This document shows positions 19,992-41,382 of a stretch of 44,987 nt of DNA, in pieces. The stretch comes from a virus, in IMG/VR virus record IMGVR_UViG_3300031521_000017. One strand, 5' to 3'. The notes below the pieces were generated by a model. The model did not search any database and was not told where the DNA came from. It saw nothing but the letters and a program-made list of their open reading frames with translations. How positions within the stretch are numbered: the stretch's first letter is position 1; every line of letters begins with the position of its first letter. The position numbers and the translations under genes were made by a program.

Positions 19992-20366
19992 ATGGCCGAC
20001 ACTCGCATCACCAAGAAGGACCGTTTCGCCCAGATGAAGAACATCGTTCTGGATGGCGTGTTTGTTGACGCCGAGGCAGACCTGCGGGAAGAGCTGGTCG
20101 CGTTCATCGACCACGAGGTCGAGCTGCTTGACAAGCGCGCGGGTACGAGCGGAAAGCCCACGAAGGCTCAGATTGAAAACGAGAAAATCAAGGTCAACAT
20201 CCTTGCGGCTCTCACGGGGTCTGAGGACGGTCTGAGGGCCACGGACGTTGGAGTCCTGATGGACATTCCGGTTCAGAAGGCAACGGCCCTGCTCAAGCAG
20301 ATGGTGGACGATGGAACCATCACCCGCGAGATGATCAAAAAGGTGGCAATGTTCAAGGTCGCCTAA
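19992..20366 (+). CDS. paralog A of a small K/A-rich protein family with a winged-helix-like C-terminus
   Basis: AAAGGAG ribosome-binding site; alignable by eye to 23563, 24626 and 40975 (TKKDRF... / ...GLRATDVGVLMDIPVQKATALLKQMVDDGTITREMIKKVAMFKV). Confidence 0.55.
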   Translation: MADTRITKKDRFAQMKNIVLDGVFVDAEADLREELVAFIDHEVELLDKRAGTSGKPTKAQIENEKIKVNILAALTGSEDGLRATDVGVLMDIPVQKATALLKQMVDDGTITREMIKKVAMFKVA

Positions 20367-20487
20367 CCTCTACGGTACTCTACAACGGAAGGTAGATCCA
20401 AGTACCTGCTGACAGTACGGGCAGGAGCCAGAATTTCGATTTAAGGAGGTGAGTCCACGTTCTAGACAACAAATAGATTTTAGTGTA

Positions 20488-20540
20488 GGACTCCCCACTT
20501 GGTCAAGCCTTGTGGGGAGTTTTGTTTTATTTTTTTTTCT
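20488..20540 (+). terminator. strong rho-independent terminator
   Basis: GGACTCCCCAC...GTGGGGAGTTTTGTTTTATTTTTTTTT. Confidence 0.7.
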
Positions 20541-20565
20541 AGAAAGTTGGCATGAAATTTGCTGG

Positions 20566-20583
20566 CGCGCCGCCCACGGCGCG
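20566..20583. repeat. GC palindrome CGCGCCG-CCCA-CGGCGCG followed by AAATTTTT (module 4)
   Basis: Family member. Confidence 0.6.
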
Positions 20584-20591
20584 AAATTTTT

Positions 20592-20620
20592 ACTATAACA
20601 CACCAGGCCAACTTTGTCAA
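20592..20620 (-). promoter_or_regulatory. predicted leftward promoter (minus strand TTGACA-N17-TATAGT)
   Basis: Nearly identical to module 5 (TTGACAAAGTTGGCCTGGTGTGTTATAGTAAAAATTTCGC versus TTGACAAAAGTGGCTCAGTGTGTTACTGTAAAAATTTCGGC). Confidence 0.5.
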
Positions 20621-20665
20621 GAGAAAAACCAGAATTATTTTTCTTTTTTTCTTCTCCTGAAACCC

Positions 20666-20694
20666 TTGTCGCCTTGCCGCACCTGTGGTACAAT
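20666..20694 (+). promoter_or_regulatory. island-type promoter CCTGAAACCC-TTGTCG-N17-TACAAT
   Basis: Conserved context. Confidence 0.5.
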
Positions 20695-20728
20695 CAACAG
20701 ACAACAGACCACAACAGAAAGCGAAACA

Positions 20729-20998
20729 ATGGCAACCGGAACGAACAACATTACAGAACTGCCCATGTCCGAAGATTCCAAAATGTGGAACTTCGTTGGG
20801 TACACTGTCCTATTCTTCATCATGGCAGGCCAAGCACTTTCCGCAGTTAATGTCCTGTGGGGTTCGCTTGCGTATCTTGTGTGCAACGTGCTTGCTATTT
20901 GGCGCACATTCTCACTACGTCGCCCAATGGCAGACAAGGTGCGGGACGTTATGTGTTTTGGAGTAACGTCCACAATTCTCATTACGAAATTTCTCTAG
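20729..20998 (+). CDS. 89-aa small membrane protein (2 transmembrane helices)
   Basis: ATG downstream of the promoter; hydrophobic stretches FVGYTVLFFIMAGQALSAV and LAYLVCNVLAIW. Confidence 0.45.
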   Translation: MATGTNNITELPMSEDSKMWNFVGYTVLFFIMAGQALSAVNVLWGSLAYLVCNVLAIWRTFSLRRPMADKVRDVMCFGVTSTILITKFL

Positions 20999-21005
20999 AA
21001 TCTTC

Positions 21006-21034
21006 TTGACCTCCTCGCGCAAGCCTGTTACACT
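21006..21034 (+). promoter_or_regulatory. promoter TTGACC-N17-TACACT
   Basis: Shares its -10 and start context TACACTAGACC with the promoter at 21973. Confidence 0.45.
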
Positions 21035-21068
21035 AGACCAGTCAAAGAAACCAACCGAAAGGTCCATC

Positions 21069-21806
21069 ATGGCTCGCAAGTCTCCCGCTCTCGCACTTGT
21101 GGTAGATGTCGAAACCTGCGGAGGTTTTGGCTCTCCTCATGTGTACGACCTTGGATTTGCGGTGGTCAATCCTAAGACTGCCGAGATTGTCGAATCGCAT
21201 TCCCTCCTCATTCCTGAAGTGTTCTACGGAATGTCTAAGGAGATGAATACCTGCTACTATGTGGAGAAGCTGCCGCAGTATATCGCGGGTATCGAGGAGG
21301 GTTCTTGGACAGTCACGCCGTTCTGGACTGCTTGGAACCTCGTGCGAAACACGATGCGAAAGTATGGTATCCGCAAGGTGTATGCCTATAACTGTGGCTT
21401 CGACCGTGGCGCACTTGACAGTACCATTAAGGCGATGACGTGCAACAAGTGGTCGCACTTCTTCCCCAAGGGTACAGAGTATTGCGACATTTGGCATATG
21501 GCTTGCCAGACCATCATGAGCCAGCGAAACTTCGTTAAGTTTTGCAACCGTCATGGGTATGTCTCGGATGCGGGAAATATCCGAACGTCTGCGGAGGTGT
21601 GCTACGCTTACATTACCAGACAGCCACACTTCGAGGAGTCACATACGGGGCTGGAAGATGTTCTCATCGAAGCTGCCATTCTCGCGCATGTTCTTCGCAC
21701 CAAGCGCGGCAAGGTGGACGAAAGTCTGACCGCTATGCCGTGGAAGATTCCGCAAGTTGTGCGGAAGGAGATGCAGAGAGCGCAAGGAATGTCAACCCTG
21801 TTCTAA
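21069..21806 (+). CDS. DEDDh-family 3'-5' exonuclease (DnaQ / RNase T / oligoribonuclease-like fold)
   Basis: Exo I motif LVVDVETCG, Exo II motif YAYNCGFDRGAL, Exo III motif H-x4-D (SHTGLEDVLIEAAIL); about 245 aa. Confidence 0.6.
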   Translation: MARKSPALALVVDVETCGGFGSPHVYDLGFAVVNPKTAEIVESHSLLIPEVFYGMSKEMNTCYYVEKLPQYIAGIEEGSWTVTPFWTAWNLVRNTMRKYGIRKVYAYNCGFDRGALDSTIKAMTCNKWSHFFPKGTEYCDIWHMACQTIMSQRNFVKFCNRHGYVSDAGNIRTSAEVCYAYITRQPHFEESHTGLEDVLIEAAILAHVLRTKRGKVDESLTAMPWKIPQVVRKEMQRAQGMSTLF

Positions 21807-21812
21807 AAAAGG

Positions 21813-21837
21813 TCTCCCGAAAGGGAGATTTTTTTTC
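21813..21837. terminator. bidirectional rho-independent terminator AAAAAA-GGTCTCCC-GAAA-GGGAGA-TTTTTTTT
   Basis: Hairpin flanked by an A-run upstream and a T-run downstream. Confidence 0.7.
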
Positions 21838-21873
21838 TCAAAAAAACACTTGACAAATCTATGGGAAAATGCG

Positions 21874-21891
21874 CGGCGCGTGGACGCGCCG
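21874..21891. repeat. GC palindrome CGGCGCG-TGGA-CGCGCCG followed by AAATTTTT (module 5)
   Basis: Family member. Confidence 0.6.
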
Positions 21892-21899
21892 AAATTTTT

Positions 21900-21928
21900 A
21901 CAGTAACACACTGAGCCACTTTTGTCAA
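21900..21928 (-). promoter_or_regulatory. predicted leftward promoter (minus strand TTGACA-N17-TACTGT); its transcript would run through the palindrome into the bidirectional terminator (about 90-nt RNA)
   Basis: Geometry as in modules 1, 2 and 4; a terminator lies 60-90 nt downstream on the minus strand. Confidence 0.45.
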
Positions 21929-21972
21929 GCAAAATCCGCAGAAAAGAAATCTTTTTTTTTTGCCCAAAACCC

Positions 21973-22001
21973 TTGCTATTGTCAACTAGTCAGCGTACAC
22001 T
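21973..22001 (+). promoter_or_regulatory. island-type promoter CCCAAAACCC-TTGCTA-N17-TACACT
   Basis: Conserved context. Confidence 0.5.
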
Positions 22002-22041
22002 AGACCTACAAGAGAACAACCCGTCAACAACAGGAGTTAAC

Positions 22042-22491
22042 ATGCCGTGCAAGAAAATCTTCTTCGACCTCGATGGAACGGTCTATCCTCTGTATGACCA
22101 AGAGGGATGGTTGGACAAACTTCACGCTAGTGACCCTTCTGCTTATGCGGTCGAAGATACTATGGTCCCCTCGGAGGAACTTCTTGACGCTCTCTGCGAC
22201 CTCATGGGCGCGGGATATGAAATCGGCGTTATCTCTTGGCTCGCGCGCAACGCCTCCAAAGAATACGAGCAGGAGACACGCGAAGTCAAGAGAGCATGGA
22301 TAAAGAAGTTTCTTCCTATGGCTTCTGAAATCCATATCGTCCGATATGGCACACCCAAGCAAGGTGTTATCCGCAAGCAGCCACTGGCGATTCTCGTCGA
22401 TGACGATGCGAACGTGCGCGCGGCATGGTGTCATGGTCTTACAATCGACCCGACCAAGAATCTCATAAAGAGGTTGCGCTCGCTCATCTAG
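22042..22491 (+). CDS. HAD-superfamily phosphatase (149 aa)
   Basis: Motif I FFDLDGTV near the N-terminus; motif IV ILVDDDANV near the C-terminus; GGAG ribosome-binding site. Confidence 0.55.
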   Translation: MPCKKIFFDLDGTVYPLYDQEGWLDKLHASDPSAYAVEDTMVPSEELLDALCDLMGAGYEIGVISWLARNASKEYEQETREVKRAWIKKFLPMASEIHIVRYGTPKQGVIRKQPLAILVDDDANVRAAWCHGLTIDPTKNLIKRLRSLI

Positions 22492-22536
22492 TGTGCTATA
22501 CTCTATACAACGACAAACAAGAAAGAAGGTTCGACA

Positions 22537-22791
22537 GTGAAAACCAACGAAATCATATTCGCCGCCGATTGTTCAGAGAACATCATAAATGCTCTGGTGG
22601 CGGTGTACCAGAATTCAACATACCAAGGAGGTCAGCATGACCTCACCACTTGCCGCATATGCCATGCGGAGCAAAACTGGGGTGGTAATGGAAGGGGTTG
22701 GAACCTAACGCACAAACCTCTGTGGAATGGTCAGCCCTGCCCAGTCGGAACGCTGGAAACTCTTCTCCAAGAGTTTTACAAGGAGGGATAG
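22537..22791 (+). CDS. 84-aa hypothetical protein (GTG start)
   Basis: ORF; start uncertain. Confidence 0.3.
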   Translation: MKTNEIIFAADCSENIINALVAVYQNSTYQGGQHDLTTCRICHAEQNWGGNGRGWNLTHKPLWNGQPCPVGTLETLLQEFYKEG

Positions 22792-22793
22792 AG

Positions 22794-23051
22794 ATGGGCA
22801 ATCCCTGCCAACAATGCAGACTCGACAATGGTAAATGCTCCTACTGGGACGAAGACAACCCCGATAACAACTTCTCACTCTCCACCGGCTATGATGAAGA
22901 TGGGGATTGTATGGCAGAAGATGCTGACTTCCCCGGCGACATATGCGAGAATTACCAAGCTGACCTCGCGGGAGACTACTGCGACCGCTGCGGCAATTAT
23001 CTCGGGAGTGAAGATGACGACGAAGAAAGCGAGTGTATCTGCAATGATTGA
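22794..23051 (+). CDS. 85-aa highly acidic Cys-rich protein (MGNPCQQCRLDNGKCSYWDEDNPDNN...DDDEESECICND)
   Basis: AAGGAGGGATAGAG ribosome-binding site; about 30% D/E; CxxC pairs. Confidence 0.45.
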   Translation: MGNPCQQCRLDNGKCSYWDEDNPDNNFSLSTGYDEDGDCMAEDADFPGDICENYQADLAGDYCDRCGNYLGSEDDDEESECICND

Positions 23052-23319
23052 TGTCGCTTGCGCCAACTATAACGGGCGCCATCGTTCTTGTGAGTGTTTC
23101 GACCTCGCAAGTGAGGATGACATTTCCAAAATGCTCTGCGACCACTTGGGAACTTGTGATGGATGGGGGAGTGAAACCTCCTGCATTAACTTCAAAGAGG
23201 CCGAAAGTTACTTCGAAAAAGATGAAGATGATGAATGCGATGGGAACTGTCCTTGCATCGACCTTTGTGATGAGGGTTCTGGAATGGTTCGAGAGACAAA
23301 ATGGCCTAAGATCTTCTGA
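23044..23319 (+). CDS. 91-aa acidic Cys-rich protein 2 (MIDVACANY...DEDDECDGNCPCIDLCDEG...)
   Basis: ATGATTGATG overlap with the upstream gene; acidic and cysteine-rich. Confidence 0.45.
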   Translation: MIDVACANYNGRHRSCECFDLASEDDISKMLCDHLGTCDGWGSETSCINFKEAESYFEKDEDDECDGNCPCIDLCDEGSGMVRETKWPKIF

Positions 23320-23351
23320 AATGCATCAATTTCATGTAATTATGCATGAAA

Positions 23352-23371
23352 TTGGCCCGCGTGCGGGCCAA
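23352..23371. repeat. GC palindrome TTGGCCCGC-GT-GCGGGCCAA followed by AATTT (module 6)
   Basis: Family member. Confidence 0.6.
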
Positions 23372-23477
23372 AATTTCAAATATCGTGCCAAAACCACCTT
23401 TTTTCGCCCAAAACAGCGAAAAATCTTGATTAATCTTCATTTCCCGAAATTAATTTAAGTTTATTTGCTATTTGGGG

Positions 23478-23506
23478 TTGTTTCTGCCGCAGAATAATGC
23501 TACAAT
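23478..23506 (+). promoter_or_regulatory. promoter TTGTTT-N17-TACAAT with an upstream CCCGAAA element
   Basis: Conserved -10 TGCTACAATGG. Confidence 0.4.
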
Positions 23507-23562
23507 GGTTTTGTTGAGAAAGAAGGAAGTGAGGCGGGAGCCTCCAAACGAAAGGCGTGACC

Positions 23563-23916
23563 ATGAACAAGAAGATGACCAAGCGCGAGATGTTCACCGC
23601 TGCTATCGCAATTGTTGCGGCTGCGAATGTCCCCGGAACCCCTGCTGTGGTGGAGGGTTTGAAGCACGAGCTGGAGTTGCTCAACAAGAAGTCCGCAGAT
23701 GGCAAGGGCAGCGCCAAGCACGCTGCCGAGGTTCGTGCCAACATGGACAAGGTTGTGACTGTCCTGTCTGATGAGGGCATCCGCGCCGCAGATGTTGGAA
23801 CTCTCGCAGACTTCTCGATTCAGAGGACTACGGCCCTCCTGAAGAAGCTTGTGGACAGCGGCGAGGTTGTCAGGGACGAGGTTAAGAAGGTAGCCTACTT
23901 CTCTCTCGCGGAGTAA
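23563..23916 (+). CDS. paralog B of the K/A-rich winged-helix-like family
   Basis: Alignable to 19992 (MNKKMTKREMF... / ...GIRAADVGTLADFSIQRTTALLKKLVDSGEVVRDEVKKVAYFSL). Confidence 0.55.
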   Translation: MNKKMTKREMFTAAIAIVAAANVPGTPAVVEGLKHELELLNKKSADGKGSAKHAAEVRANMDKVVTVLSDEGIRAADVGTLADFSIQRTTALLKKLVDSGEVVRDEVKKVAYFSLAE

Positions 23917-23948
23917 GCAAAAAGGGGAGAGAAATCTCCCCCAATCGC

Positions 23949-23977
23949 TTGTCCTAGTCGTGCCAATGTGCTACAAT
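23949..23977 (+). promoter_or_regulatory. promoter TTGTCC-N17-TACAAT
   Basis: Shares 20 nt (TGCTACAATGAACTTACARG) with the promoter at 17952. Confidence 0.5.
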
Positions 23978-24027
23978 GAACTTACAAGAAACAACGAACG
24001 CCCTACGGGGCAAGAAGGAGAGTTAGC

Positions 24028-24273
24028 ATGGAGTTTACTGTTATTGACACTTATGACTGCGAAACATCGCGTTTCGACACGTTGGACGCCGCGAGAGCGT
24101 ATGCTAAATCAGTCGCAGAGTGGCTGGTCGAGAGAGAGTATTTCGGTGAAACAGTCACAATCTCTATGATTGTTCCTTTTGAGGCTTGTGAAACTATCAG
24201 GCCGACGCCGGCTCCACCGATTGAGTTCTGCACTTGTCAGACAGTAGTGGTTACCACGACTGTCTGCGGATAG
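24028..24273 (+). CDS. 81-aa hypothetical protein
   Basis: GAAGGAGAG ribosome-binding site. Confidence 0.4.
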   Translation: MEFTVIDTYDCETSRFDTLDAARAYAKSVAEWLVEREYFGETVTISMIVPFEACETIRPTPAPPIEFCTCQTVVVTTTVCG

Positions 24274-24383
24274 CGAGTCCTACCCTACATTTAAATAAAT
24301 GGTTAACAGGTAGCTGCTGTTATTAAATGTCAGTTGTAAAACTCAGCCCCGCAGTCTCACCCTGAGGTTGAGGGTGAGATTTG

Positions 24384-24403
24384 TTGGCTCGCAAGCGAGC
24401 CAA
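24384..24403. repeat. palindrome TTGGCTCGC-AA-GCGAGCCAA followed by AATTTGACAG (module 7); preceded by the hairpin TCTCACCCT-GAGGTTG-AGGGTGAGA (24355-24379)
   Basis: Family member. Confidence 0.55.
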
Positions 24404-24524
24404 AATTTGACAGAAAACATCCTATAGGCATTTTTTGCCTTACCTCGTGACCCTTCTATATAGACTATAAAATTCCCAATATAGACCCCATAAGCCTTAT
24501 ATCGCCTAGCTCAAAAGATTTCTA

Positions 24525-24553
24525 TTGACACTTTTTTTGAAATGTGTTATAAT
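24525..24553 (+). promoter_or_regulatory. consensus sigma-A promoter TTGACA-N17(TGTGT)-TATAAT with an AAAAGATTT UP-like element
   Basis: One of three near-identical promoters (24525, 25181, 25912). Confidence 0.6.
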
Positions 24554-24625
24554 GAGATATAAGGAAAAAGGGAATGCATAAAAGGTGTGTTCCACAGAAT
24601 AAACAGAGAGGTTCGGTGTATTAAG

Positions 24626-25000
24626 GTGACGAAGGTTACGAAGCGCAACCAGTTTGTTGCTGTCCAGGAGATCCTGACTGGTCTCGGCGAGACGGATCGA
24701 GCAGACTTCATCGGTGCTCAGATTGCTCTTATCGACAAGCGCAAGACTGCAGACCGCAAGCCCACGAAGGCTCAGGAGGCTAATGCTGAGATCAAGGAGA
24801 GTATTGTCGAGACTCTCATTGGCTTTGATGGTCTGACTGCGACTGAGGTTGCAGGTACCGAGGACATCTCAGTCCAGAAGGCCAGCCAGCTGCTTACGCA
24901 GCTTGTGGCTGCGGAGATTGTTATCCGCGTCGAGGGCAAGGGCAAGGAGAAGACTAAGTTCAGCCTCGCTAATCGTGCGGAGGTTGACGCCGCAGAGTAA
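24626..25000 (+). CDS. paralog C of the K/A-rich winged-helix-like family (GTG start; an alternative GTG lies at 24587)
   Basis: With GTG at 24626 the N-terminus MTKVTKRNQF aligns with paralogs A, B and D; C-terminal part ...GLTATEVAGTEDISVQKASQLLTQLVAAEIVIRVEGKGKEKTKFSL. Confidence 0.5.
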   Translation: MTKVTKRNQFVAVQEILTGLGETDRADFIGAQIALIDKRKTADRKPTKAQEANAEIKESIVETLIGFDGLTATEVAGTEDISVQKASQLLTQLVAAEIVIRVEGKGKEKTKFSLANRAEVDAAE

Positions 25001-25180
25001 GTTATCTTAACCGAGAGGTTCCTCCGAAGTCCGAGGATTAAATAGGCAGGCTCCAGGTCCAGCCTCTCCACAAAGATAAGTTAGTTTTTTGGCCCTTAGT
25101 TCTACAAGGGACAGGCCATCCCGCCACGAGTCGCGACTCAGTGGAACTAACGGCTAAAAAGCTAACTTAAAAGATTTTGT

Positions 25181-25209
25181 TTGACAAAAAATAAAAAATA
25201 TGTTATAAT
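25181..25209 (+). promoter_or_regulatory. consensus sigma-A promoter TTGACA-N17-TATAAT
   Basis: AACTTAAAAGATTTTGTTTGACA upstream context. Confidence 0.6.
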
Positions 25210-25250
25210 AGAGATAACGAAAAAAGAAAAATCTAAAAAGGAGCTGCCGC

Positions 25251-25646
25251 ATGCGCTACGATCTCGATGGTAAGAATATCAACATCCCTGACAACTTCAT
25301 TGACACCAGCATGCACAATCTCGGCATCACTCGTCAGGAAGCTATTGACCTCTACCTGTCAGACAATGACTTCATTACTAACGATGAGATTGTCGCCATG
25401 ACAGTTAAGGCTAAGGCCGCAGGCACTGGTGCTAAGGCAACGGGGGAGAAAGTTGCCCACAAGGCTCCAGAGCGCAAGCCCGATCTCGTTAAGCGTGCAG
25501 TTATTGCTGCCCTTTCTGAATTCATCACGGGCACTGAGCACGTTGAGAATGTCACTATTACCAATATCGAGCGAATGATTGCTTTCGAAATTGGTGGAGA
25601 TAAGTTCGAAGTCGTGCTTACCAAGAAGCGTAAGCCCAAGGAGTAA
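25251..25646 (+). CDS. 131-aa hypothetical protein
   Basis: AAAGGAG ribosome-binding site. Confidence 0.5.
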   Translation: MRYDLDGKNINIPDNFIDTSMHNLGITRQEAIDLYLSDNDFITNDEIVAMTVKAKAAGTGAKATGEKVAHKAPERKPDLVKRAVIAALSEFITGTEHVENVTITNIERMIAFEIGGDKFEVVLTKKRKPKE

Positions 25647-25911
25647 TTACAATATGGGCCGGATATGACACGAAGTCATAGAAGAGACTTTCCGGGAGTA
25701 GGAGATCGGTACCCTACAATTTAATTATACCAGCAGGTCCAGTTTGCGACAGAGTAATGGGGCGGAACGATCATCCGCACTCCTGCTGATATAAAATCTT
25801 TTAAGTTGGCTTCTCAGTGGTGACGCGTAACCCGCCGTTGTCTCAGCTCTGGATGGCCATTCAACTGAGCCTTTTCAAAAAAATTTGAGAAGTCAACTTA
25901 AAAGATTTTCA

Positions 25912-25940
25912 TTGACAACTTTTCAAAAATGTGTTATAAT
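25912..25940 (+). promoter_or_regulatory. consensus sigma-A promoter TTGACA-N17-TATAAT
   Basis: CAACTTAAAAGATTTTCATTGACA upstream context. Confidence 0.6.
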
Positions 25941-25980
25941 AAGATATAGAAAAAAACAAAAGAAAGAAATGAGGAATACC

Positions 25981-26187
25981 ATGCGCGAGGTCTTCTACGT
26001 AATGCCATGTCCTGGCTCATTCACTCCGATTAATCTTGAAGGTGATGATTTCGTTCGACTCCCTGATGGTGTTCATGCAGCCACAGGTATCGGCACAGTC
26101 TTTATCGCTATGACACTTACTGGTCGTGCATTCTACGCCATTGAGGGTTGCCTCGTAATTGTAGACTTGGATGAGGTACTCGACTAA
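25981..26187 (+). CDS. 68-aa hypothetical protein
   Basis: GAGGAATACC ribosome-binding site. Confidence 0.4.
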   Translation: MREVFYVMPCPGSFTPINLEGDDFVRLPDGVHAATGIGTVFIAMTLTGRAFYAIEGCLVIVDLDEVLD

Positions 26188-26372
26188 TGCATGAGTATAA
26201 AATCCTCGTCACAGAGTGGGATTTGTCTTGCGGAGACCCTAACTCTTGGGTGAAGTTCCGCATGACAAATATCTTCAATATTCCAGCAAAGACTCTCGGT
26301 GATGCTCTTGGTAGGCTCGCAAAGTCTATGGGTTATGGCATTATCGAGTATGAAGTTCTTGCAATATATTAA
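26187..26372 (+). CDS. 61-aa hypothetical protein
   Basis: TAATG-coupled ORF. Confidence 0.35.
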   Translation: MHEYKILVTEWDLSCGDPNSWVKFRMTNIFNIPAKTLGDALGRLAKSMGYGIIEYEVLAIY

Positions 26373-27357
26373 CCATCAACGTCCTCTCCTATAGACCTGA
26401 GACGAAAAGGGTTTAGATTATGGAGGTTAAGGAAAGCTGATGTTTCCCCGGGAAGGATCATCAAGAGTCCCAAGTAACTTGACAGGCTTGGCTTTGAAGT
26501 GCGGTCCTTGAATCCGCACACTCTTGAGAGAAAAGGTGCGCGAAGAGTAAACTGCGTTGAATGTGGCTCACAGTCTGGCTGCAGCCTATGGGCATGGTAG
26601 GGTAGCGCCTTCACCGGTTAAGAAAAAACGCATCCTGATCGCTGGCCAAATGGGAGGCCCGCAGGATATAGTATTAAAGGTGCGCGATAGGCTTTCAGCG
26701 TTAAATGTGGGAAGTCAGGTCCACCCGCAGCCTACGGACTGATCTACCCGTTAAAGTGGATCTTGTGAGTGAATCTCCATTATAAAGAGTTGGGATACTA
26801 ATTATGGACCCAGCAACCGCCAGTAAGCTTGGGATAGGGATGAAGAATCAGGCCCCAATGCGGTTTGGACGCGTGAGCAGCAGCGAATAGCCATATATTG
26901 AGCCTTGGCTGCCACCTATTAGTGCGAAAAGGGAACTCTAAGTGAGTCAATTAGCCTACGACTTTAAATGCGGCTCAGTTACTGCTTGAGGAATAGCTAC
27001 CTCAGGAAAGCACAGCTTCGTTCCCCTGACTTTTAGCTTAAGATAGAAGCCTAGCACAAACTCAGGTTCCGCAAAGAGTAGAAAAGGTCGGAAAACATAT
27101 CTTATTGGGTGCTTCCTTCGAGATCCTGATGATAAAAATGAAGGGATCGAAGGACTATATCCCGCAGCTTGGTAGTGGTAGTGGTGTATGGTGCATACTA
27201 TAAACGAGGTGTGAGGTTCGAATCGTCCCTATGACAACGACCACCTGTCTTCGAAGCAGGTGGTCTAGCTACGATTATACCACAAAACCTGCACAATGTC
27301 AAGTTTTTTCTTCGACTTTAGTTATTGAATCTTTTTTTCTAAAATTCCCGAAATAAC
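26373..27357 (+). ncRNA. candidate large structured non-coding RNA (about 1 kb ORF-free, GC-balanced, internally repetitive, ending at a strong terminator)
   Basis: No ORF of at least 60 aa in frame with any signal. Internal repeat AAGGTGCGCGA...GCGTTRAATGTGG...CYGCAGCCTAYGG occurs twice, with a third partial copy. Many local hairpins, for example GTGCGG-TCCTTGAAT-CCGCAC and GACCACCTGTCTTCGAAGCAGGTGGTC. A tRNA T-loop-like GGTTCGAATC is present at 27207. Strand is inferred from the downstream terminator. Confidence 0.3.
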
Positions 27358-28339: not shown

Positions 28340-28340
28340 T

Positions 28341-33327: not shown

Positions 33328-33331
33328 TAAA

Positions 33332-34365: not shown

Positions 34366-34458
34366 GAAAATCCTGTAGAAAATTGTAATAATTGTGGAAT
34401 GGCCAACGATAATGATGATGTCTGTGACTCAGACTTTCATGAATAACTAAATAAAAAT

Positions 34459-34500
34459 GTCAAGAGGAAGCATAAAGATTCCTCTTGACATTTCTTTTTA
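34459..34500 (+). terminator. terminator hairpin GTCAAGAGGAA-GCATAAAGA-TTCCTCTTGAC followed by a T-run, fused to promoter TTGACA-N16-TATAAT (34485-34512)
   Basis: Same hairpin family as the one at 33332. Confidence 0.55.
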
Positions 34501-34546
34501 TTTGTGATATAATAAGTTATTGAAAGATATGAAAGGGGAAAAATTC

Positions 34547-34786
34547 ATGGAGATTCTCGCTACAATCCGAGAAAATGATACAAGAGAAGGAGAGTCAAGA
34601 CCAATCTTTCTAGGTTATGAGAAATGTCCGGGAACAGATTTTCCCATTATGTATCTAGGTATCGTTGATAACATGGGTGTTAATCAAGACGATAGGATTT
34701 TTTGCTTTGTCAGAACTCCAGATGAAGTTCTCTCAGAAATTGAAAAGCGCTGGTCACATTTTGTAACTTTTGAATATTACACTTAA
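34547..34786 (+). CDS. 79-aa hypothetical protein
   Basis: AAAGGGGAAAA ribosome-binding site. Confidence 0.4.
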   Translation: MEILATIRENDTREGESRPIFLGYEKCPGTDFPIMYLGIVDNMGVNQDDRIFCFVRTPDEVLSEIEKRWSHFVTFEYYT

Positions 34787-34799
34787 GAGGGAGAAAACA

Positions 34800-34979
34800 A
34801 TGGCTACTATTGAAGAGCTTGCCAAGCTAGCTCTCGAATATAATTATATGGATTGGGATGCAAACAGAGAACTCGCTATTGCAGTCCATGATGCCTTCGC
34901 TAATGGGACTCTCCATGAAGGACTGACAAATATTCAAAAAGCTGTTAATGCATGTTCTCAGAACGGAGAAGATAAGTAA
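34800..34979 (+). CDS. 59-aa hypothetical protein
   Basis: AGAGGGAG ribosome-binding site. Confidence 0.35.
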   Translation: MATIEELAKLALEYNYMDWDANRELAIAVHDAFANGTLHEGLTNIQKAVNACSQNGEDK

Positions 34980-35182
34980 TGGATACTACAGTATCAATTC
35001 CTCTAGCAACTGTCGCCGCAGAAAGTGGAATAGAAGAGGATGCTAGGCTGGACCTTGGTGAGATCATTCAAGAGATGAAAGACAATCCAACTCCTGGGAT
35101 TTCCCGCCAACAGAGGCGCGCTACACTTCGACAGCTTGAAGCTGCATATAAGAGACAAAAGAAAACTAATAAAAACAAGTAA
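34979..35182 (+). CDS. 67-aa hypothetical protein
   Basis: TAATG-coupled ORF. Confidence 0.35.
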   Translation: MDTTVSIPLATVAAESGIEEDARLDLGEIIQEMKDNPTPGISRQQRRATLRQLEAAYKRQKKTNKNK

Positions 35183-35194
35183 AGGGGAATAAAA

Positions 35195-35374
35195 ATGGCA
35201 AGAACTCGTGGTGGACATAAGAACGGAGATCGTGCGGCAGACAGGTGCGGCAATGATGGGGTTGGGACTCCATCTGGACGACTTGCTCGGAGACTTAAGG
35301 CTTATGCGGAAATGAGCAAGGGTCGAAGTTTTGATGGGATGGCCTTCCATAAACCAGGTTCAAATAAGAAGTAA
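35195..35374 (+). CDS. 59-aa basic protein ending FHKPGSNKK (paralog of 18028..18171)
   Basis: AAAGGGGAAT ribosome-binding site; shared C-terminal motif. Confidence 0.45.
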   Translation: MARTRGGHKNGDRAADRCGNDGVGTPSGRLARRLKAYAEMSKGRSFDGMAFHKPGSNKK

Positions 35375-35574
35375 ATAAACTACTTTTATTGAGTATGCTA
35401 GTCGGGGAGAGCCCGATTCGGAAATGGACAGATAAAGCCGTCGCTTCACAGGCAGGGGCATACTTGATTAATGGGTGATAGACACCGGAGAAAGTGAAAA
35501 CTGGAAATAACCGGAAGTGTGCGGGCATAGGAGAGAAATCCTTGTAAGAGACCTACACAGCCCATTTATTTATA

Positions 35575-35615
35575 GGGATGTTAAGTAGAAATACTTGACA
35601 TCCCTTTATTTTTAT
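35575..35615 (+). terminator. terminator fused to promoter TTGACA-N17-TATAAT (35595-35623)
   Basis: GGGATGT...ACATCCC followed by TTTATTTTTAT. Confidence 0.5.
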
Positions 35616-35674
35616 GTTATAATGTAATAACACTAACAAAAGAATAGAGAAAATTGAAAGGAGGATAAAACTGA

Positions 35675-36205
35675 ATGGATACAAAAGGCGTGTATATTGG
35701 GAGATTTAATCCAATACACGTTGGACACGGGCGGGTAGTCCGGACCATGCTCAATGAGTGTGGGTTAAAAAATTCAGTGATTGTAATAGGTTCGAGTAAC
35801 GCAGAGTTTTCTGCTCGAAACATTTTCAATTACTTGGACCGGACCTCTTTTATTAAAAAGCTATTCCCAAATTCCAACGTGATAGGATTGCCTGATTTCC
35901 CAGACTCGAACGAAGCCTGGCTCGCTAATCTGGATTCTATTTTGGAGTTTGGGAATTTTCATATTCAAGACACTATGCTATATACTGGAGACGCCAATGA
36001 TCTTCAAGCGCAACTATTCACACAGGCAAATCGCCCCATTAGGATAGTAGAGAGAGAAGAAATGCCAGGAGTTTCTGGGACAAACGTCCGCGAAGCATTG
36101 CTGAATAAACAATGGGATTTAGCAGCTTCTATGCTTGACCCCATAGTCGCAAATGATATTATTAAGGAGAGTAAATGCAATCTGAATATAAACGGACTCT
36201 GTTAA
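35675..36205 (+). CDS. nicotinamide/nicotinate mononucleotide adenylyltransferase (NadM-type NMNAT)
   Basis: (H/T)xGH nucleotidyltransferase motif GRFNPIHVGH at the N-terminus; about 176 aa; adjacent to the NAMPT and Nudix genes. Confidence 0.6.
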   Translation: MDTKGVYIGRFNPIHVGHGRVVRTMLNECGLKNSVIVIGSSNAEFSARNIFNYLDRTSFIKKLFPNSNVIGLPDFPDSNEAWLANLDSILEFGNFHIQDTMLYTGDANDLQAQLFTQANRPIRIVEREEMPGVSGTNVREALLNKQWDLAASMLDPIVANDIIKESKCNLNINGLC

Positions 36206-36750
36206 AAGAAACTCCTTTTCTGCACTTAAATGAGGTTGAATACTTCGACCATGAGGGTGTATTAAAGAAATGGTACGGAGTTAGTAGAAAAAACAGCACT
36301 CCTGCAGTGCAAGTGGCAGCGATCACAGAAGAGAACGAACTTGTTCTTGTCACTCAGTATCGTCCCTATATTGATAGTATGACTATTGAATTGCCTGCGG
36401 GATTAATGGATGTGCCGGGTGAGTCTGTAATTGATTGTGCGGAGCGCGAATTGCTCGAAGAGACTGGATTCCAAGGAGATGGTAATACATTACATGCTCT
36501 TGGAGGCGAGCGTGGACTTACAGTTTCAGCCGGACTTACAGATGAGCGTATTCATCTTGTTATTGTTACTGGGTGTGTAAAAGTTGCAGATCCATATACA
36601 AATGAAGGAACCCATCCTTTTCTTGTCCCTTTACGGGATGCAGAGGAAATTCTGTATCCTTTCACTTCAACAGGGAAGAAATTCAATATCAGTTTTGGCC
36701 TATTTGGCACCTTGTATATAATTCGAAACTACCTTAATGGAGGGCTATAA
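36175..36750 (+). CDS. Nudix hydrolase (ADP-ribose pyrophosphatase-like)
   Basis: Nudix box GLMDVPGESVIDCAERELLEETG; overlaps the NMNAT gene by 31 nt. Confidence 0.6.
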   Translation: MQSEYKRTLLKETPFLHLNEVEYFDHEGVLKKWYGVSRKNSTPAVQVAAITEENELVLVTQYRPYIDSMTIELPAGLMDVPGESVIDCAERELLEETGFQGDGNTLHALGGERGLTVSAGLTDERIHLVIVTGCVKVADPYTNEGTHPFLVPLRDAEEILYPFTSTGKKFNISFGLFGTLYIIRNYLNGGL

Positions 36751-38150
36751 TGAATCCTATTTTGAGCACGGATAGCTATAAGGCATCTCACTTTTTGCAA
36801 TTCCCACCTAATATGACGGGTATGTTTAGCTATCTTTCTTCAAGAGGTGGAAGATACGACCACACTCTTTGGTTTGGACTAAAGCCAATTATTCAAAAGT
36901 ATCTCCAGGTTCGTATTACAAAGGAAATGGTCTTGGAAGCACAAGAGTTCTTCTTGGCTCATGGCGAGCCATTCCCTTATGATGGTTGGATGAAGGTTGT
37001 CAACTATTATAATGGCCTTGTTCCTCTAAAGATTAAGGCAGCCCCAGAGGGGGCTGTAGTCCCAGTTCACAATGCTCTTATGACTGTTTCTTGTACCGAT
37101 CCAGATCTGTTTTGGCTTGTCTCTTGGTTTGAGACTCTTCTTGTACGAGTTTGGTATCCTACGACAGTAGCAACGTCTTCAATGTATGCGAAGAAAACTA
37201 TCTTGGAGGCTTTGATTAAGACTGCGGACGATCCCGAAGGAGAAATTCCTTTCAAGCTTCACGACTTTGGGGCGAGAGGAGTTTCCTCAGGAGAGTCTGC
37301 GGCAATCGGTGGCGCCGCTCACCTTGTAAACTTCATGGGTTCTGACACTGTAGAAGGTGTCGTTTTCGCCAACAAGGTTTATGGAGTCGAAGGAGGTATG
37401 GCCGCATTCTCAATACCTGCGGCGGAACACTCTACTATTACCTCTTGGGGCAAGGAGAATGAGGTAGAAGCATATCGAAACATGGTAAAGCAGTTTGCTA
37501 AGCCAGGATCAATTCTTGCAGTCGTGTCTGACTCTTACAATCTTTGGGATGTGCTGGAGAATATGTGGGGCGATGAGCTGAAGCAGATGGTAATTGACTC
37601 AGGCGCTACAGTCGTTATTCGTCCAGACTCTGGAATCCCAAGAGATGTCGTTCTTCAAGCTCTTCAGGTGCTCGACCAGAAGTTTGGGCACACTATCAAT
37701 AGTAAGGGGTATAAAGTTCTAAATAATGTAAGAATCATACAGGGAGATGGAATTACCGCAGATTCTATCCCAGAGATTATTGATAACTTTGTGAATGCGG
37801 GATATTCTGCAACGAATGTTGGCTTTGGTATGGGAGGCGGCCTTCTTCAACAAGTTAATAGAGACACTCAACGATTTGCCTATAAATGTTCTGCGGCTCT
37901 TATTAATGGGGAATGGACCCCAGTATATAAGGATCCAATTACTGATCCTGGAAAGGCTTCTAAGAAGGGAGTTTTTACTCTTTGGAGAGATAAGGATGGA
38001 TTCCGCACTGGCCCTATTAATGAGCCTTGGGAAGACACAAAAGTATCTGCTCTACACACGGTATACAATGAAGGAAGAGTTGCCTTTGATGGTAACTTCG
38101 ATGATATTAGGAATCGTGCGGCTCAAGGGCTAAAGGCCATAATGAACTAG
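36750..38150 (+). CDS. nadV: nicotinamide phosphoribosyltransferase (NAMPT / NadV)
   Basis: 466 aa; the N-terminus NPILSTDSYKASHF is characteristic of NAMPT. Confidence 0.7.
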   Translation: MNPILSTDSYKASHFLQFPPNMTGMFSYLSSRGGRYDHTLWFGLKPIIQKYLQVRITKEMVLEAQEFFLAHGEPFPYDGWMKVVNYYNGLVPLKIKAAPEGAVVPVHNALMTVSCTDPDLFWLVSWFETLLVRVWYPTTVATSSMYAKKTILEALIKTADDPEGEIPFKLHDFGARGVSSGESAAIGGAAHLVNFMGSDTVEGVVFANKVYGVEGGMAAFSIPAAEHSTITSWGKENEVEAYRNMVKQFAKPGSILAVVSDSYNLWDVLENMWGDELKQMVIDSGATVVIRPDSGIPRDVVLQALQVLDQKFGHTINSKGYKVLNNVRIIQGDGITADSIPEIIDNFVNAGYSATNVGFGMGGGLLQQVNRDTQRFAYKCSAALINGEWTPVYKDPITDPGKASKKGVFTLWRDKDGFRTGPINEPWEDTKVSALHTVYNEGRVAFDGNFDDIRNRAAQGLKAIMN

Positions 38151-38162
38151 AATAATAGAAAA

Positions 38163-38202
38163 GTCAACAGCTAGAGTAAAAACTAGCCGTTGACTTTTTT
38201 CT
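38163..38202 (+). terminator. terminator fused to promoter TTGACT-N17-TACAAT (38190-38218)
   Basis: GTCAACAGCTAG...CTAGCCGTTGAC followed by a T-run. Confidence 0.55.
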
Positions 38203-38237
38203 TATTTTATGATACAATAAAAAAGAAAGGGGAAAAT

Positions 38238-38612
38238 ATGACCTTCAAAGATTATCTAGATGTATATGTTCCTTATCTCTTAGGAGAAAAGACTTCTCAT
38301 GTCCCTAGGATGGTTTCTCTTTTAGTTGACAATCCTAGAGCGGTAGAGCCTTTCCTTTTATGGGCGCTTTATCATAATGACTATGCTTATACAAGACGCT
38401 CTATTGAGAGTGATTCTTCTTATTATGATAAGTGGGGAAGAGATTTAATAAAGGAGTTTGCGCTTCTCCATTCCTTGTATGCTATAGGAATATTAGAAGA
38501 ATGCTTAGAAAAAAACCTTGATATGGAATCTCCTTATTATGGATATTCAAAATGTTGGTTTAGTTTCAAGATTCGAAGAGACTATCCCGAGAACTTCGCA
38601 GAAAGGGACTAG
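38238..38612 (+). CDS. 124-aa hypothetical protein
   Basis: ATG downstream of the promoter, with an AAAGGGGAAAA ribosome-binding site. Confidence 0.45.
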   Translation: MTFKDYLDVYVPYLLGEKTSHVPRMVSLLVDNPRAVEPFLLWALYHNDYAYTRRSIESDSSYYDKWGRDLIKEFALLHSLYAIGILEECLEKNLDMESPYYGYSKCWFSFKIRRDYPENFAERD

Positions 38613-38613
38613 A

Positions 38614-38823
38614 ATGATTGAAATAAATAAGAAAAATGCTAGATATATTTTAGGTACGATGATTTCTGTCGGAGCTATTATACTAGGGGCAGCCGCAATT
38701 GTTCAAGTAATTTTGGGAAATGATTATAATGTGATTTGGAATACTGGGGCGGGACATATCTTAGTATTCTACATCGGCGGACTCGTTGGCTACTTAATGG
38801 CAAAGGCTTTTGACAGCAAATAA
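38614..38823 (+). CDS. 69-aa membrane protein (2 transmembrane helices)
   Basis: Hydrophobic ORF; a promoter TTGACA-N17-TATAAT (38810-38838) is embedded at its 3' end. Confidence 0.4.
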   Translation: MIEINKKNARYILGTMISVGAIILGAAAIVQVILGNDYNVIWNTGAGHILVFYIGGLVGYLMAKAFDSK

Positions 38824-38872
38824 AAAAAGTGATATAATAAGATATTAAAGAAAATCAGAAAAGGAGCTTGTT

Positions 38873-39145
38873 ATGGGTTTTGGAGGAGATAAGATTTTTG
38901 GTTCTAATCTTTCTCTTGGCCAGTTTGAATTTATGGCTGAGGCTGAGAGCCAGGATAATCTGGTAGATACACCAGATTCTCGTTTTAATGCGGCTCTTAT
39001 TGAAATTCAAAATGAATTGGGTTGGGCTAAAGGTCTAGACACAGACATAACAGAAAGAGTAGATGGAATCCTTCAGTGTCATGGGATTAATCCTGCTTTT
39101 CTGTCTCCAGAACAAGTTCTAAATATTCAACTTATTGTTTTTTAA
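38873..39145 (+). CDS. 90-aa hypothetical protein
   Basis: AAGGAG ribosome-binding site. Confidence 0.45.
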   Translation: MGFGGDKIFGSNLSLGQFEFMAEAESQDNLVDTPDSRFNAALIEIQNELGWAKGLDTDITERVDGILQCHGINPAFLSPEQVLNIQLIVF

Positions 39146-39158
39146 GGAGGTATCTACT

Positions 39159-40892
39159 TTGAGCAAGAAGCAACTGTTGGAAGCCGTAAGTCCAGATTTT
39201 GAAGTTATTAATAGATACATCCTTGCTCACAGCAGATGTGATGGACGTCAAGGAATTGAAAATATATTGGCTCCTTGGGCGAAAAACAAACAAATGCTTT
39301 TCAATCTTCTTGGTCAGCAGCTAGTGCGTAGAGTAGATATTGATTTGGAGCAATCTAAAGATACTATCTATGATAGTCTTTCTCGCCTTTATTCTTTCTA
39401 TAGAGAGTGCGGAGAGCCTAACTTTGGCAATCAAAAAAGTCCTTTTGTAAAAGAGTATTTGGCTTTCATAGACAAAAATGTAGGTTCATATTCAGATGCG
39501 GCCTATGCTTTGTCGTATTCTCTGTTGAATGCAAATGCAATAGCAAAAGATGAAATTACTCTAGATACTCCTAAGAAAATAACTATTCAAAGTGATAATA
39601 ATCCCCGCAAATTGATTTTGCAAAATGGAATGAAGCCAATGCGGGCTTTGAACAAAGTTGTTAATTACTTTGGCAAGGAAAACTTTCCTCATTTTGAAGA
39701 GTTCCGATTGGCGCATTCGAATATTTTCACTTCCAAAGTAATTAAAGGCACTCTAGTCTTTTCCATCCATCCTCTTGACTATATGACTATGTCTGATAAT
39801 GATAATAATTGGACCACTTGTATGAGTTGGGTTGATGATGGTGAGTATAGGCTAGGGACTCTTGAAATGCTCAATTCCAATAACTCTCTTATGGTTTATT
39901 TGGAGTCTGAAACTCCATACGAATTTTCACCTGGGCATTTTTGGAATAATAAGAGTTGGAGACAAATTGTTGTTGTTGATAAGAATATTATCCTAGGTGG
40001 AAAATCCTACCCTTATACCTCCAAGCAGTTGTCTGTAAAGATTCTTGAAATACTGCAAGGATTTGCAAAAGAGAATCTAAATTGGAAATATAAGTATGGG
40101 CCGCAAGAATATCATGACATGTCTCAGATGTATGGAGAACATGTCCATTCAACGCATAAAAATTCTTCAAAGAAGAGTATCCTTTTTGATACTGGTTTTA
40201 TGTATAATGATATTTTGGAGAATCATACCTCAACATATTATTGCATTCGGAATCGAGTTTCTAAACAAAAGGTAATCTCATACTCAGGGAAAGCTTTTTG
40301 TCTTGATTGCGGGGAGCCTTTTGAGAGAAGGGCTTCTTCTGAAAATTTGTTTTGTAATGAATGTTTGTCTGCGCATGAGTGTAATCATTGCGGTCGTTAT
40401 ATTCACAAAAATGAAACGACCTATATAGTTAATAACCAAAAGCATTGCGAAGATTGTTTCACTAGGCTTAGGAAATGTCCAGATTGTGGGAAACTAGTTA
40501 GCTCTTATAGCTCTTATTTTGTTTTTTGCGACCAGGAAGCTCTAGATAAAGCTCTCACTAACGAATGGAGAACTTGTTATTGGAGTGAGATTTACTGGGC
40601 GCTCTTGGATACCAAGCAAGCCAGAGAAGTTAATACTTGCAATGAATGTTATAGTAAGCTTGAAAAGAATGGAATGTTTAAGATGGTACGCATGAGTTAC
40701 ATGCAGAAACGATATCTGGATAAGATTATTCCTTTTTATCACACCAAAATTTTTGAAAGAGATTGGGATAATTGGATTCAGAATCCTATATTAATACAAA
40801 CTTCTACTCTAGACGATTTTACTATAACGATTCCGCAAAATCAAGACAGTTTTAACTCAGATAAAGTTTTAACCTGGTTTTTATCTCTTTAG
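39159..40892 (+). CDS. 577-aa protein with a C-terminal array of CxxC zinc-ribbon motifs (TTG start after AAGGAGG)
   Basis: Long ORF; at least 6 CxxC pairs between residues about 370 and 500. Confidence 0.5.
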   Translation: MSKKQLLEAVSPDFEVINRYILAHSRCDGRQGIENILAPWAKNKQMLFNLLGQQLVRRVDIDLEQSKDTIYDSLSRLYSFYRECGEPNFGNQKSPFVKEYLAFIDKNVGSYSDAAYALSYSLLNANAIAKDEITLDTPKKITIQSDNNPRKLILQNGMKPMRALNKVVNYFGKENFPHFEEFRLAHSNIFTSKVIKGTLVFSIHPLDYMTMSDNDNNWTTCMSWVDDGEYRLGTLEMLNSNNSLMVYLESETPYEFSPGHFWNNKSWRQIVVVDKNIILGGKSYPYTSKQLSVKILEILQGFAKENLNWKYKYGPQEYHDMSQMYGEHVHSTHKNSSKKSILFDTGFMYNDILENHTSTYYCIRNRVSKQKVISYSGKAFCLDCGEPFERRASSENLFCNECLSAHECNHCGRYIHKNETTYIVNNQKHCEDCFTRLRKCPDCGKLVSSYSSYFVFCDQEALDKALTNEWRTCYWSEIYWALLDTKQAREVNTCNECYSKLEKNGMFKMVRMSYMQKRYLDKIIPFYHTKIFERDWDNWIQNPILIQTSTLDDFTITIPQNQDSFNSDKVLTWFLSL

Positions 40893-40921
40893 TTGATAAA
40901 ACTAAAAATTTATGATATAAT
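40893..40921 (+). promoter_or_regulatory. promoter TTGATA-N17-TATAAT
   Basis: Good boxes. Confidence 0.5.
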
Positions 40922-40974
40922 GAATTATCAAAGAAAAGGAACAAAAGTTCCTTTAAGATGAAAAGGAGAACAAA

Positions 40975-41382
40975 ATGAGTGAGCACAAGGCAACGAAGTC
41001 AGAGCTTTTCACCGAGATTCAGACGATTCTCGCAGATGCAGGCCATGTCGATCTTGCAGATGTTATGGGTAAGGAAGTAGCTAGTCTTGCGGCTAAGGCT
41101 GCGAAGGCTAAGGAGGCTGCGGCTAAGAAGGCTGCTACAGTCGATGAGTTTAAGGCGATTGTCGCAGGCGCTCTTACAGACGAGTTCCAGTCTGGTGCCG
41201 ATGTCTTTGCGGCTGTCGGTTATGTGGATGACGAGGATGCTAATAAGTCTCTGACTCTTGGTAAGGTTCGCGCTCGACTTACCGCTCTTGTCAAGGAGGG
41301 TTCTGTGGTTAAGGACTCTATCAAGGCGACAGATGCTGAGGACAAGACACATACGGTCATGGGATATAAGCTTGCAGAGTAA
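40975..41382 (+). CDS. paralog D of the K/A-rich winged-helix-like family (GC-rich gene inside AT-rich DNA)
   Basis: MSEHKATKSELF...AAKAAKAKEAAAKKAA...LTLGKVRARLTALVKEGSVVKDSIKATDAEDKTHTVMGYKL; GGAGAA ribosome-binding site. Confidence 0.55.
   Translation: MSEHKATKSELFTEIQTILADAGHVDLADVMGKEVASLAAKAAKAKEAAAKKAATVDEFKAIVAGALTDEFQSGADVFAAVGYVDDEDANKSLTLGKVRARLTALVKEGSVVKDSIKATDAEDKTHTVMGYKLAE

Follow-up and report, generated by a model that had tools for sequence, protein, structure and literature searches.

A multi-copy winged-helix protein family in the early region of uncultivated Firmicutes-type phages

Introduction

Why would a phage keep several diverged copies of one small protein gene? 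The question is raised by IMG/VR virus record IMGVR_UViG_3300031521_000017. The window, which is the whole stretch of 44,987 nucleotides analysed here, is part of an 85-127 kb phage sequence. It carries four genes for small proteins, called A to D below. A sequence-only reading had aligned the four by eye and proposed candidate DNA-binding proteins of linker-histone-like architecture, which could recognize palindromes and boxes repeated around their genes. Our analysis places A to D in a new family inside the known winged-helix kind. We tentatively favor a reading with a nearly even chance of being correct, in which A to D are dimeric proteins, abundant early in infection, that bind DNA and have an architectural or global role.

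Results and discussion

A to D belong to one protein family

Sequence comparison indicates that A to D are homologous and belong to one phage-specific family, whose proteins have 115-135 residues and of which D is a true member. In BLASTP, A is 40% identical to B (E=2e-19) and 42% identical to C (E=2e-18), and B and C share 30% identity (E=3e-8). The matches of D are marginal by this method (B-D, E=0.006; A-D and C-D, not significant), and profile methods are needed to place it. For a family hidden Markov model (HMM), A, B and C were combined with 32 metagenome homologues, and D was left out. This model matches D over profile positions 2-110 (E=1.3e-12, 46.6 bits). The canonical set and 44 D-type homologues were aligned by hhalign over 123 columns, with 99.6% probability (E=1e-23). 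The pairwise, D-free-profile and profile-profile matches show that the alignment is significant for all four genes. In a six-frame scan of the window the HMM found four members exactly, A to D. A, B and C gave full-length canonical matches of 141, 116 and 109 bits, respectively. Metagenome gene callers independently produced an identical 124-residue product for A (P0001) and an identical 135-residue product for D (P0218).

The N-terminal motif TK(K/R)xxF described in the earlier reading is found in all four proteins as TK(K/R/S)xxF, and its T7 and K8 are 97-99% conserved in the family. The full signature of this region is TK[RK][ED]xF ... FIDHEVELL. A has all of the canonical motifs, C has most and B has fewer. 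The center of the proteins had been described as rich in lysine, alanine and glutamate. This is correct for D, in which AAKAAKAKEAAAKKAA is present, and incorrect for A to C (K 10-11%, A 11-15%). The lysine-rich connecting helix in this region reads KPTKxQxEN in canonical members and KAAKAKExAAxKK in the D type. The latter motif is invariant in the D-type subfamily (D and 43 homologues aligned), and the run AAKAAKAKEAAAKKAA in D is its hallmark. D also has the ALTDE motif, K97 and R101 in the recognition helix and a position 5' of the 273-residue gene family, all characteristic of the D type. Members intermediate between the D type and the canonical type retain HEIELLDKK.

The predicted fold is a winged helix with an N-terminal hairpin

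Models of A and D were calculated with AlphaFold2 from family alignments, with predicted local distance difference test (pLDDT) scores of 82 and 86, respectively. Both contain a two-helix hairpin at the N terminus, formed in A by residues 8-20 and 29-50. The winged helix of A consists of helices 58-75, 83-90 and 94-107 and strands 110-115 and 118-123. A three-helix bundle followed by a β-hairpin wing is the arrangement of winged helix-turn-helix proteins in the Pfam clan HTH. The two models and the fold searches support the C-terminal helix-turn-helix and wing that had been read from the sequence, and the predicted fold is of the DNA-binding type. In D, the second hairpin helix, the K/A run (residues 39-54) and the first helix of the winged helix form a single 42-residue helix (25-66). 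Because this helix is continuous, AAKAAKAKEAAAKKAA is a helical connector and not a tail. A to D end 0-10 residues past the wing, and the models of A and D contain no disordered tail and no segment with pLDDT below 50.

These features bear on the proposal of a linker-histone-like architecture, in which a winged-helix globular domain and a basic Lys/Ala tail compact DNA. The winged-helix fold and the K/A-rich run in D speak for it, as does the automatic name 'H-NS' given to one D-type homologue by the Joint Genome Institute. However, the likeness to linker histones H1/H5 is confined to the winged-helix domain and, in D only, the Lys/Ala-rich segment. The domain order is reversed, with the K/A run N-terminal to the winged helix. 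The run is helical and charge-balanced, and the isoelectric point (pI) of 5.2 differs from about 11 in linker histones. The net charge is -2 in A, +2 in B, -2 in C and -5 in D (pI 5.2-8.9). None of the four has the long, disordered and strongly basic Lys/Ala/Pro-rich C-terminal tail that defines linker histones. No match to Linker_histone (PF00538) was found for A to D at E<=10, and this family is not among the 25 most-matched of 57 Pfam families for 35 relatives. We therefore regard a linker-histone-like architecture as extremely unlikely.

The nearest matches of the fold are repressors of the ArsR, MarR, IclR and Rrf2 families. This suggests an alternative, possible but doubtful, that A to D are sequence-specific transcription regulators timing early and middle genes, each with its own operators near the repeated promoters of the region. 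Weak Pfam matches below threshold to MarR_2, TrmB and HTH_20 are in line with it. MarR_2 reaches 18.8 bits against a 27-bit cutoff, and no helices follow the wing. HTH_20 of the ArsR/SmtB group matches C only (E=0.029, 14.8 bits against 27), and the α5 helix is missing. HTH_metalloreg of NCBIfam reaches 1.2e-3 at best, in 2 of 35 members. Unlike the ArsR/SmtB and MarR-type repressors CzrA (1r1u), ArsR (6j05), MJ223 (1ku9) and MepR, the family lacks the α1/α5 dimer helices of ArsR and the α1/α5/α6 dimer helices of MarR, and has the N-terminal hairpin instead. All of the dimerization elements that define MarR or ArsR are thus absent, which argues against such regulators. The hairpin has conserved motifs of its own and no structural match, and it may serve as a dimerization or partner-binding module.

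Conserved residues were located in an alignment of 221 members, which were drawn from the best-scoring matches and somewhat inflate the conservation. They include T7 and K8 at the N terminus, and F38, H41, E42, E44, L45 and L46 in helix 2. In the winged helix they are T57, K58, Q60 and N63 at its start (α1), T82 in α2, [ST]93, N94, Q95 and [KR]96 at the start of the recognition helix, and R/K112, K116-K118 and F121 in the wing. Polar and basic residues at the positions where winged helices contact nucleic acid are 60-100% conserved. The putative contact residues are near-invariant in thousands of clusters and in A, B and C, suggesting a common and slowly evolving target rather than co-evolving operators. 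The specificity of phage repressors normally diversifies, whereas N94-Q95-[KR]96 hardly varies among canonical members, A, B and C included. The recognition helix of the D type, which differs from the canonical one, would provide at least two specificities and favors the regulator alternative.

Zα domains (ADAR1, ZBP1, PKZ, poxvirus E3L and CyHV-3 ORF112) were also compared. Their Z-DNA signature consists of N173, Y177, W195 and wing prolines, which contact the zigzag backbone. It is absent from the family consensus in a hand alignment with the ADAR1 Zα sequence. The signature positions are occupied by S/T, K/T and a KKKAYF wing in the family. Its recognition helix is [ST]NQ[KR]x[ST]ALLxQL, and there is no Tyr and no Pro-Pro-x-Trp.

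Promoters and codon usage resemble those of strongly expressed genes

Judged from sequence, nearly every copy of the family has its own consensus sigma-A promoter. The best promoter within 150 nucleotides upstream of 129 distinct family genes is, in the median, a perfect TTGACA-N16-18-TATAAT with TG. It scores at least 11 of 12.5 in 85% of these genes, compared with 8-10 for late-type neighbor families. The earlier statement that each gene in the window has its own promoter is borne out, with scores of 10-12 of 12 plus TG for A, C and D, and a weaker -35 with an extended -10 for B.

The codon usage of the family appears to be that of highly expressed genes. Compared with the other conserved genes of the same locus, family genes have a higher GC content at third codon positions (GC3, 0.53 vs 0.33), a higher share of AAG among lysine codons (0.78 vs 0.32) and a higher share of GAG among glutamate codons (0.57 vs 0.23). 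GC3 and AAG are higher in the family genes in 55 of 55 loci (p=1e-10; some loci are near-duplicates), and GAG in 50 of 55. In the window, the AAG fraction is at least 0.85 in A to D, the major capsid homologue (6261-7301) and a virion protein (1711-2601). The same is found for the NAMPT gene and for the neighbors at 21069-21806 and 25251-25646. Avoidance of poly-A runs is not the cause, since a family of 131-residue proteins encoded beside the paralogs is richer in lysine (15% K) and lacks the bias across loci. The effect is gene-specific, as D is 50% GC amid surroundings of 34-38% GC. Consensus promoters and capsid-like codon bias are the proxies from which we infer that the family proteins are abundant. 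Neither is expected for low-copy regulators.

The genes are located among two classes of repeated promoters, which would suit regulators. The repeated palindromes and TTGWCAAGAGGA boxes, proposed earlier as recognition sites, were rejected as operators. They resolve into intrinsic terminators and the -35 hexamers of minus-strand promoters. The TTGWCAAGAGGA box is the reverse complement of the minus-strand promoter -35. The window contains 8 matches to it (0.7 expected), and 5 of these are inside the GC-rich island described below. A 67-nucleotide composite element joins a GC-rich terminator hairpin on the + strand to a minus-strand TTGACA-17-TA(T/C)(A/T)GT promoter. The third of its four copies is oriented antisense over A, towards a minus-strand terminator-like hairpin (19973-19960), and the fourth is antisense into the exonuclease-like gene. 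A downstream antisense promoter was rejected as a family-wide feature, as only about 20% of members have one.

Several early units have GC-rich hairpins between the -10 and the ribosome-binding site. In addition to those of A, B and D (Table 1), they are found at 17995-18010 and 23999-24012. These hairpins in the 5' untranslated region (UTR) may be stabilizers of the mRNA 5' end or regulatory sites. If the family proteins recognized the small GC hairpins in their own and neighboring early 5' UTRs, they could be RNA-binding regulators of translation or mRNA stability. We consider this very unlikely. The hairpin sequences differ from one another, C has no clear hairpin, and a role as 5' stabilizers is simpler.

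The paralogs are old and have been retained

To compare loci, their open reading frames (ORFs) were clustered and counts were made over 50 distinct loci. Within at most 20 kb, the family has one copy in 6 loci, two in 13, three in 23, four in 6 and five in 2. Four copies had been called unusual for a phage. This is true of phages in general and not of this clade, in which 44 of the 50 loci have 2-5 copies. For every paralog in the window, the most similar copy is found in another phage and not among its siblings, and C-type and D-type copies keep their downstream neighbors. The duplications are therefore old and the copies have been retained, which indicates subfunctionalization. D is a positional orthologue of the D-type copies in 8 loci, since the 273-residue gene follows it as in those loci.

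The clustering shows one conserved early module, which contains a divergent sigma-like gene, a HAD-type gene, an exonuclease-like gene, several winged-helix genes and the gene for the 131-residue protein. The family of the 131-residue protein is present in 51 loci, often as a duplicated pair, and is encoded directly 3' of a winged-helix paralog in 37 of the 50 distinct loci. The middle of the protein is rich in lysine, and its C terminus is a basic RKPK tail. Neither Pfam nor PDB gave a match, and homology to the winged-helix family was rejected (hhalign, 0.5%).

A proposed architectural or global role

We propose that host RNA polymerase would transcribe the family genes immediately after infection, from extended -10 promoters of the sigma-A type. 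Each gene forms its own transcription unit, often with a small 5' UTR hairpin and a terminator, and the proteins would build up to high levels early. They would dimerize through the N-terminal hairpin. Binding to double-stranded nucleic acid, most likely DNA, would be mediated by the recognition helix [ST]-N-Q-[KR] and the basic wing with R/K112 and K116-K118. On the phage or host genome, these abundant DNA-binding proteins would then have an architectural or global role, and not that of low-copy repressors of single operators. The paralogs keep their genomic positions and would be subfunctionalized. A common target and the proxies for abundance together point to this architectural or global DNA-binding role.

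The 'histone-like' proteins phi29 p6 and SPO1 TF1 of Firmicutes phages are small and very abundant. They cover the DNA of their phages and influence both its replication and its transcription. Overall, p6 is an acidic protein with a fold of its own, and TF1 is of the HU type. By analogy, the family may be functionally comparable to p6 or TF1 without homology to them. Their folds are unrelated to that of the family, and no sequence similarity to either was found. AspA (pNOB8) and TubR, small winged-helix proteins that polymerize along DNA, are among the PDB matches of the family. However, the match is to the generic fold only, and no gene for a partition ATPase or TubZ is located next to the paralogs.

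Several observations weigh against the proposed role. The neutral-to-acidic pI of the family (median 7.8; D type 5.2) is unusual for DNA-coating proteins, although p6 is acidic as well, and the winged-helix half has a net charge of only about +1. No candidate binding motif proved to be enriched. Since all of the 15.4-27 kb island is GC-rich, the codon bias of A to C is partly regional, and the gene-specific codon argument rests on D and the other 54 loci. In addition, an abundant protein-binding factor would be just as compatible with strong promoters and codon bias.

Such a factor would serve in host takeover or anti-defense, its winged helix and hairpin gripping a conserved host protein such as RNA polymerase or a nucleoid protein. 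The neutral to acidic overall charge agrees with this. Several relatives have long acidic C-terminal tails, which also agree with it, and one relative is a tandem duplication of the winged helix. T7-K8 and H41-E42-x-E44 are among the most conserved polar residues and are located outside the winged helix, and the protein-binding winged helices of ScpB and ESCRT-II are among the fold matches. An early, strongly expressed, multi-copy setting is typical of takeover genes. We nevertheless judge this explanation unlikely. A nucleic-acid interface would suit the conserved basic wing and the polar residues that open the recognition helix, and no match to an anti-defense family was found in PHROGs, Pfam or NCBIfam (PADLOC was not searched).

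The DNA-binding reading can be extended to an unrecognized viral chromatin, an extension that we regard as fairly unlikely. In it, 2-5 ancient winged-helix paralogs would reach capsid-like amounts within minutes of infection and, as homo- or heterodimers, assemble on the incoming phage genome or on the host nucleoid. They would shield or organize the DNA and set the programme of transcription and replication. This would apply to a large clade of uncultivated Firmicutes phages from the gut, the rumen and the environment, and the 131-residue partner may be involved.

Should the family proteins be DNA binders that are abundant early, they would represent a component of host takeover that is common in this gut, rumen and environmental phage clade and has so far escaped study. 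Experiments could readily start from the conserved set of paralogs, each with a consensus promoter, and the two divergent members in cultured Enterococcus phages (H1 and, by inference, the EF1/VRE9 group) provide a way to test the family.

The family is large and almost confined to uncultivated phages

An exhaustive profile search of 1.84 billion cluster representatives (clusters at 50% identity) found 6,331 clusters at E<=1e-3, of which 3,525 also reach E<=1e-10. All of the 150 best matches listed are 110-190 residues long. No Pfam or NCBIfam model reaches its cutoff, and generic winged-helix models match weakly. The only recurrent library family is phrog_19455 (PHROGs v4, function unknown), which matches 14 of 35 members with a best E of 1.6e-9; the match of A to this family falls short of E<=0.001. 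Named cluster members are nearly always 'hypothetical protein', and two automatic names, Fur and H-NS, occur on members or homologues. Since the family has no curated Pfam or NCBIfam model and only this small unannotated PHROG, a profile model would annotate thousands of 'hypothetical proteins' in viromes. Nothing on the family was found in the phAss-1 paper or in keyword searches of the literature.

In IMG/VR, 48 loci were found on viral contigs of 15-400 kb. Only 6 loci were found among 185,579 bacterial species in GTDB. All 6 are on contigs of metagenome-assembled genomes, labelled Bacilli, Eubacteriales, Erysipelotrichaceae and similar. This distribution indicates that the family is not host-derived and not typical of prophages. 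tblastn searches with three members and the profile consensus gave a single match in GenBank phages, the unannotated fecal contig MT835855, and no match in plasmids. The family thus occurs almost exclusively in large uncultivated phages of the Firmicutes type, which are related to SPbeta-like phages.

The portal, terminase, YonG-like, sigma-like and capsid genes of the window resemble those of phAss-1, Enterococcus phages EF1/H1/VRE9, phiCD211, Sundance and large Bacillus siphoviruses, which form the SPbeta-like assemblage. A synteny-guided search found two divergent family members in the cultured Enterococcus faecium phage H1 (OP534061). H1_103 (36.8 bits) sits between a HAD hydrolase and an exonuclease, like the module in the window, and H1_91 scores 27.3 bits. 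The motifs ITK, ELLNK, Q-K and KKVAYK are recognizable in these two proteins. phAss-1 (OQ749652), which is the closest of the named relatives in its portal and capsid, has no significant member in the 48 kb examined. It is classed in the 'Caudoviricetes code 15 clade', in which TAG is recoded. The window phage does not appear to be recoded: its late genes (100-15371) are intact under standard code 11, and several end in TAG.

Neighboring genes and other features of the region

Table 1. Coordinates of the paralogs, their expression signals and neighboring genes in the window, and of the family members in phage H1
Feature	Position	Strand	Remarks
Paralog A	19992-20366	+	124 aa; canonical member; every family signature residue retained
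Paralog B	23563-23916	+	117 aa; recognition-helix Q-R retained; F38, T57, Q60, N63 lost
Paralog C	24626-25000	+	124 aa; GTG start; positional orthologue of the copy 5' of the 131-aa partner gene elsewhere
Paralog D	40975-41382	+	135 aa; diverged 'KAAKAKE' subfamily; 50% GC amid 34-38% GC
Promoter of A	19916-19944	+	TTGTCA-17-TACAAT + TG (extended -10); 10/12
Promoter of B	23478-23507	+	TTGTTT-17-TACAAT + TG; weaker -35; aligns with A promoter
Promoter of C	24525-24553	+	Perfect TTGACA-17-TATAAT + TG; 12/12
Promoter of D	40893-40921	+	TTGATA-17-TATAAT + TG; 11/12
5' UTR hairpin of A	19960-19973	+	Small, GC (GGGCAGGGATGCCC); scores as minus-strand terminator too
5' UTR hairpin of B	23531-23544	+	GAGGCGGGAGCCTC
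5' UTR hairpin of D	40935-40954	+	
Terminator 3' of A	20566-20583	+	Intrinsic; 7 GC pairs and T run
Terminator of D	41394-41429	+	Intrinsic; 16-pair stem and T run
Antisense promoter at A	20592-20620	-	TTGACA-17-TATAGT, 11/12 + TG; points into A; contains TTGWCAAGAGGA-type box
67-nt composite element, four copies	17397-17463, 18496-18562, 20576-20642, 21884-21950		
Exonuclease-like neighbor	21069-21806	+	phrog_20187; annotated exodeoxyribonuclease in Enterococcus phage H1; in 45/50 loci
HAD-type 5'(3')-deoxyribonucleotidase-like neighbor	22042-22491	+	phrog_2643; in 38/50 loci
131-aa partner gene	25251-25646	+	Own perfect promoter 25181-25209
273-aa gene	41491-42312	+	3' of D-type paralog in 8 loci
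Sigma-factor-like gene	14298-15371	Divergent from early island	phrog_5767; own promoter 15429-15401
Family members in phage H1	8516-8905 and 2303-2716 of examined OP534061 stretch		

The sigma-factor-like gene probably drives middle or late transcription. It has a C-terminal zinc-ribbon or HNH-like stretch, and its position is kept in 15 loci.

The island at 15400-27000 is about 12 kb long and has about 50% GC in a phage of otherwise about 36% GC. Its coding and non-coding parts are equally GC-rich. It contains no tRNA and, apart from one chance-level match, no Rfam match at gathering thresholds or E<=0.1. Few credible ORFs are found at 15.4-18.6 kb and 26.4-27.4 kb. These two parts have no nucleotide similarity to the nearest relative, though the latter has a similar GC-rich early region. 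Stop-codon recoding was considered as the cause of the ORF-poor parts and rejected, as read-through translations gave no convincing genes.

About 500 nucleotides upstream of A, positions 19484-19512 are an 83%-identical copy of the -10 and leader of B (23497-23525, ATGGTAAGATGGTTTTGTTGAGAGGGAAG). The copy is in a stretch without a convincing ORF and is followed by a 22-nucleotide inverted repeat (19618-19639/19766-19787). It may be a short non-coding transcript or the start of a decayed gene.

Outside the island, genes at 35675-38150 form an NAD+ salvage trio, a cytidylyltransferase-like (NMNAT-type), a NUDIX and the NAMPT gene. The trio resembles phage NAD-reconstitution pathways that are reported to serve in counter-defense.

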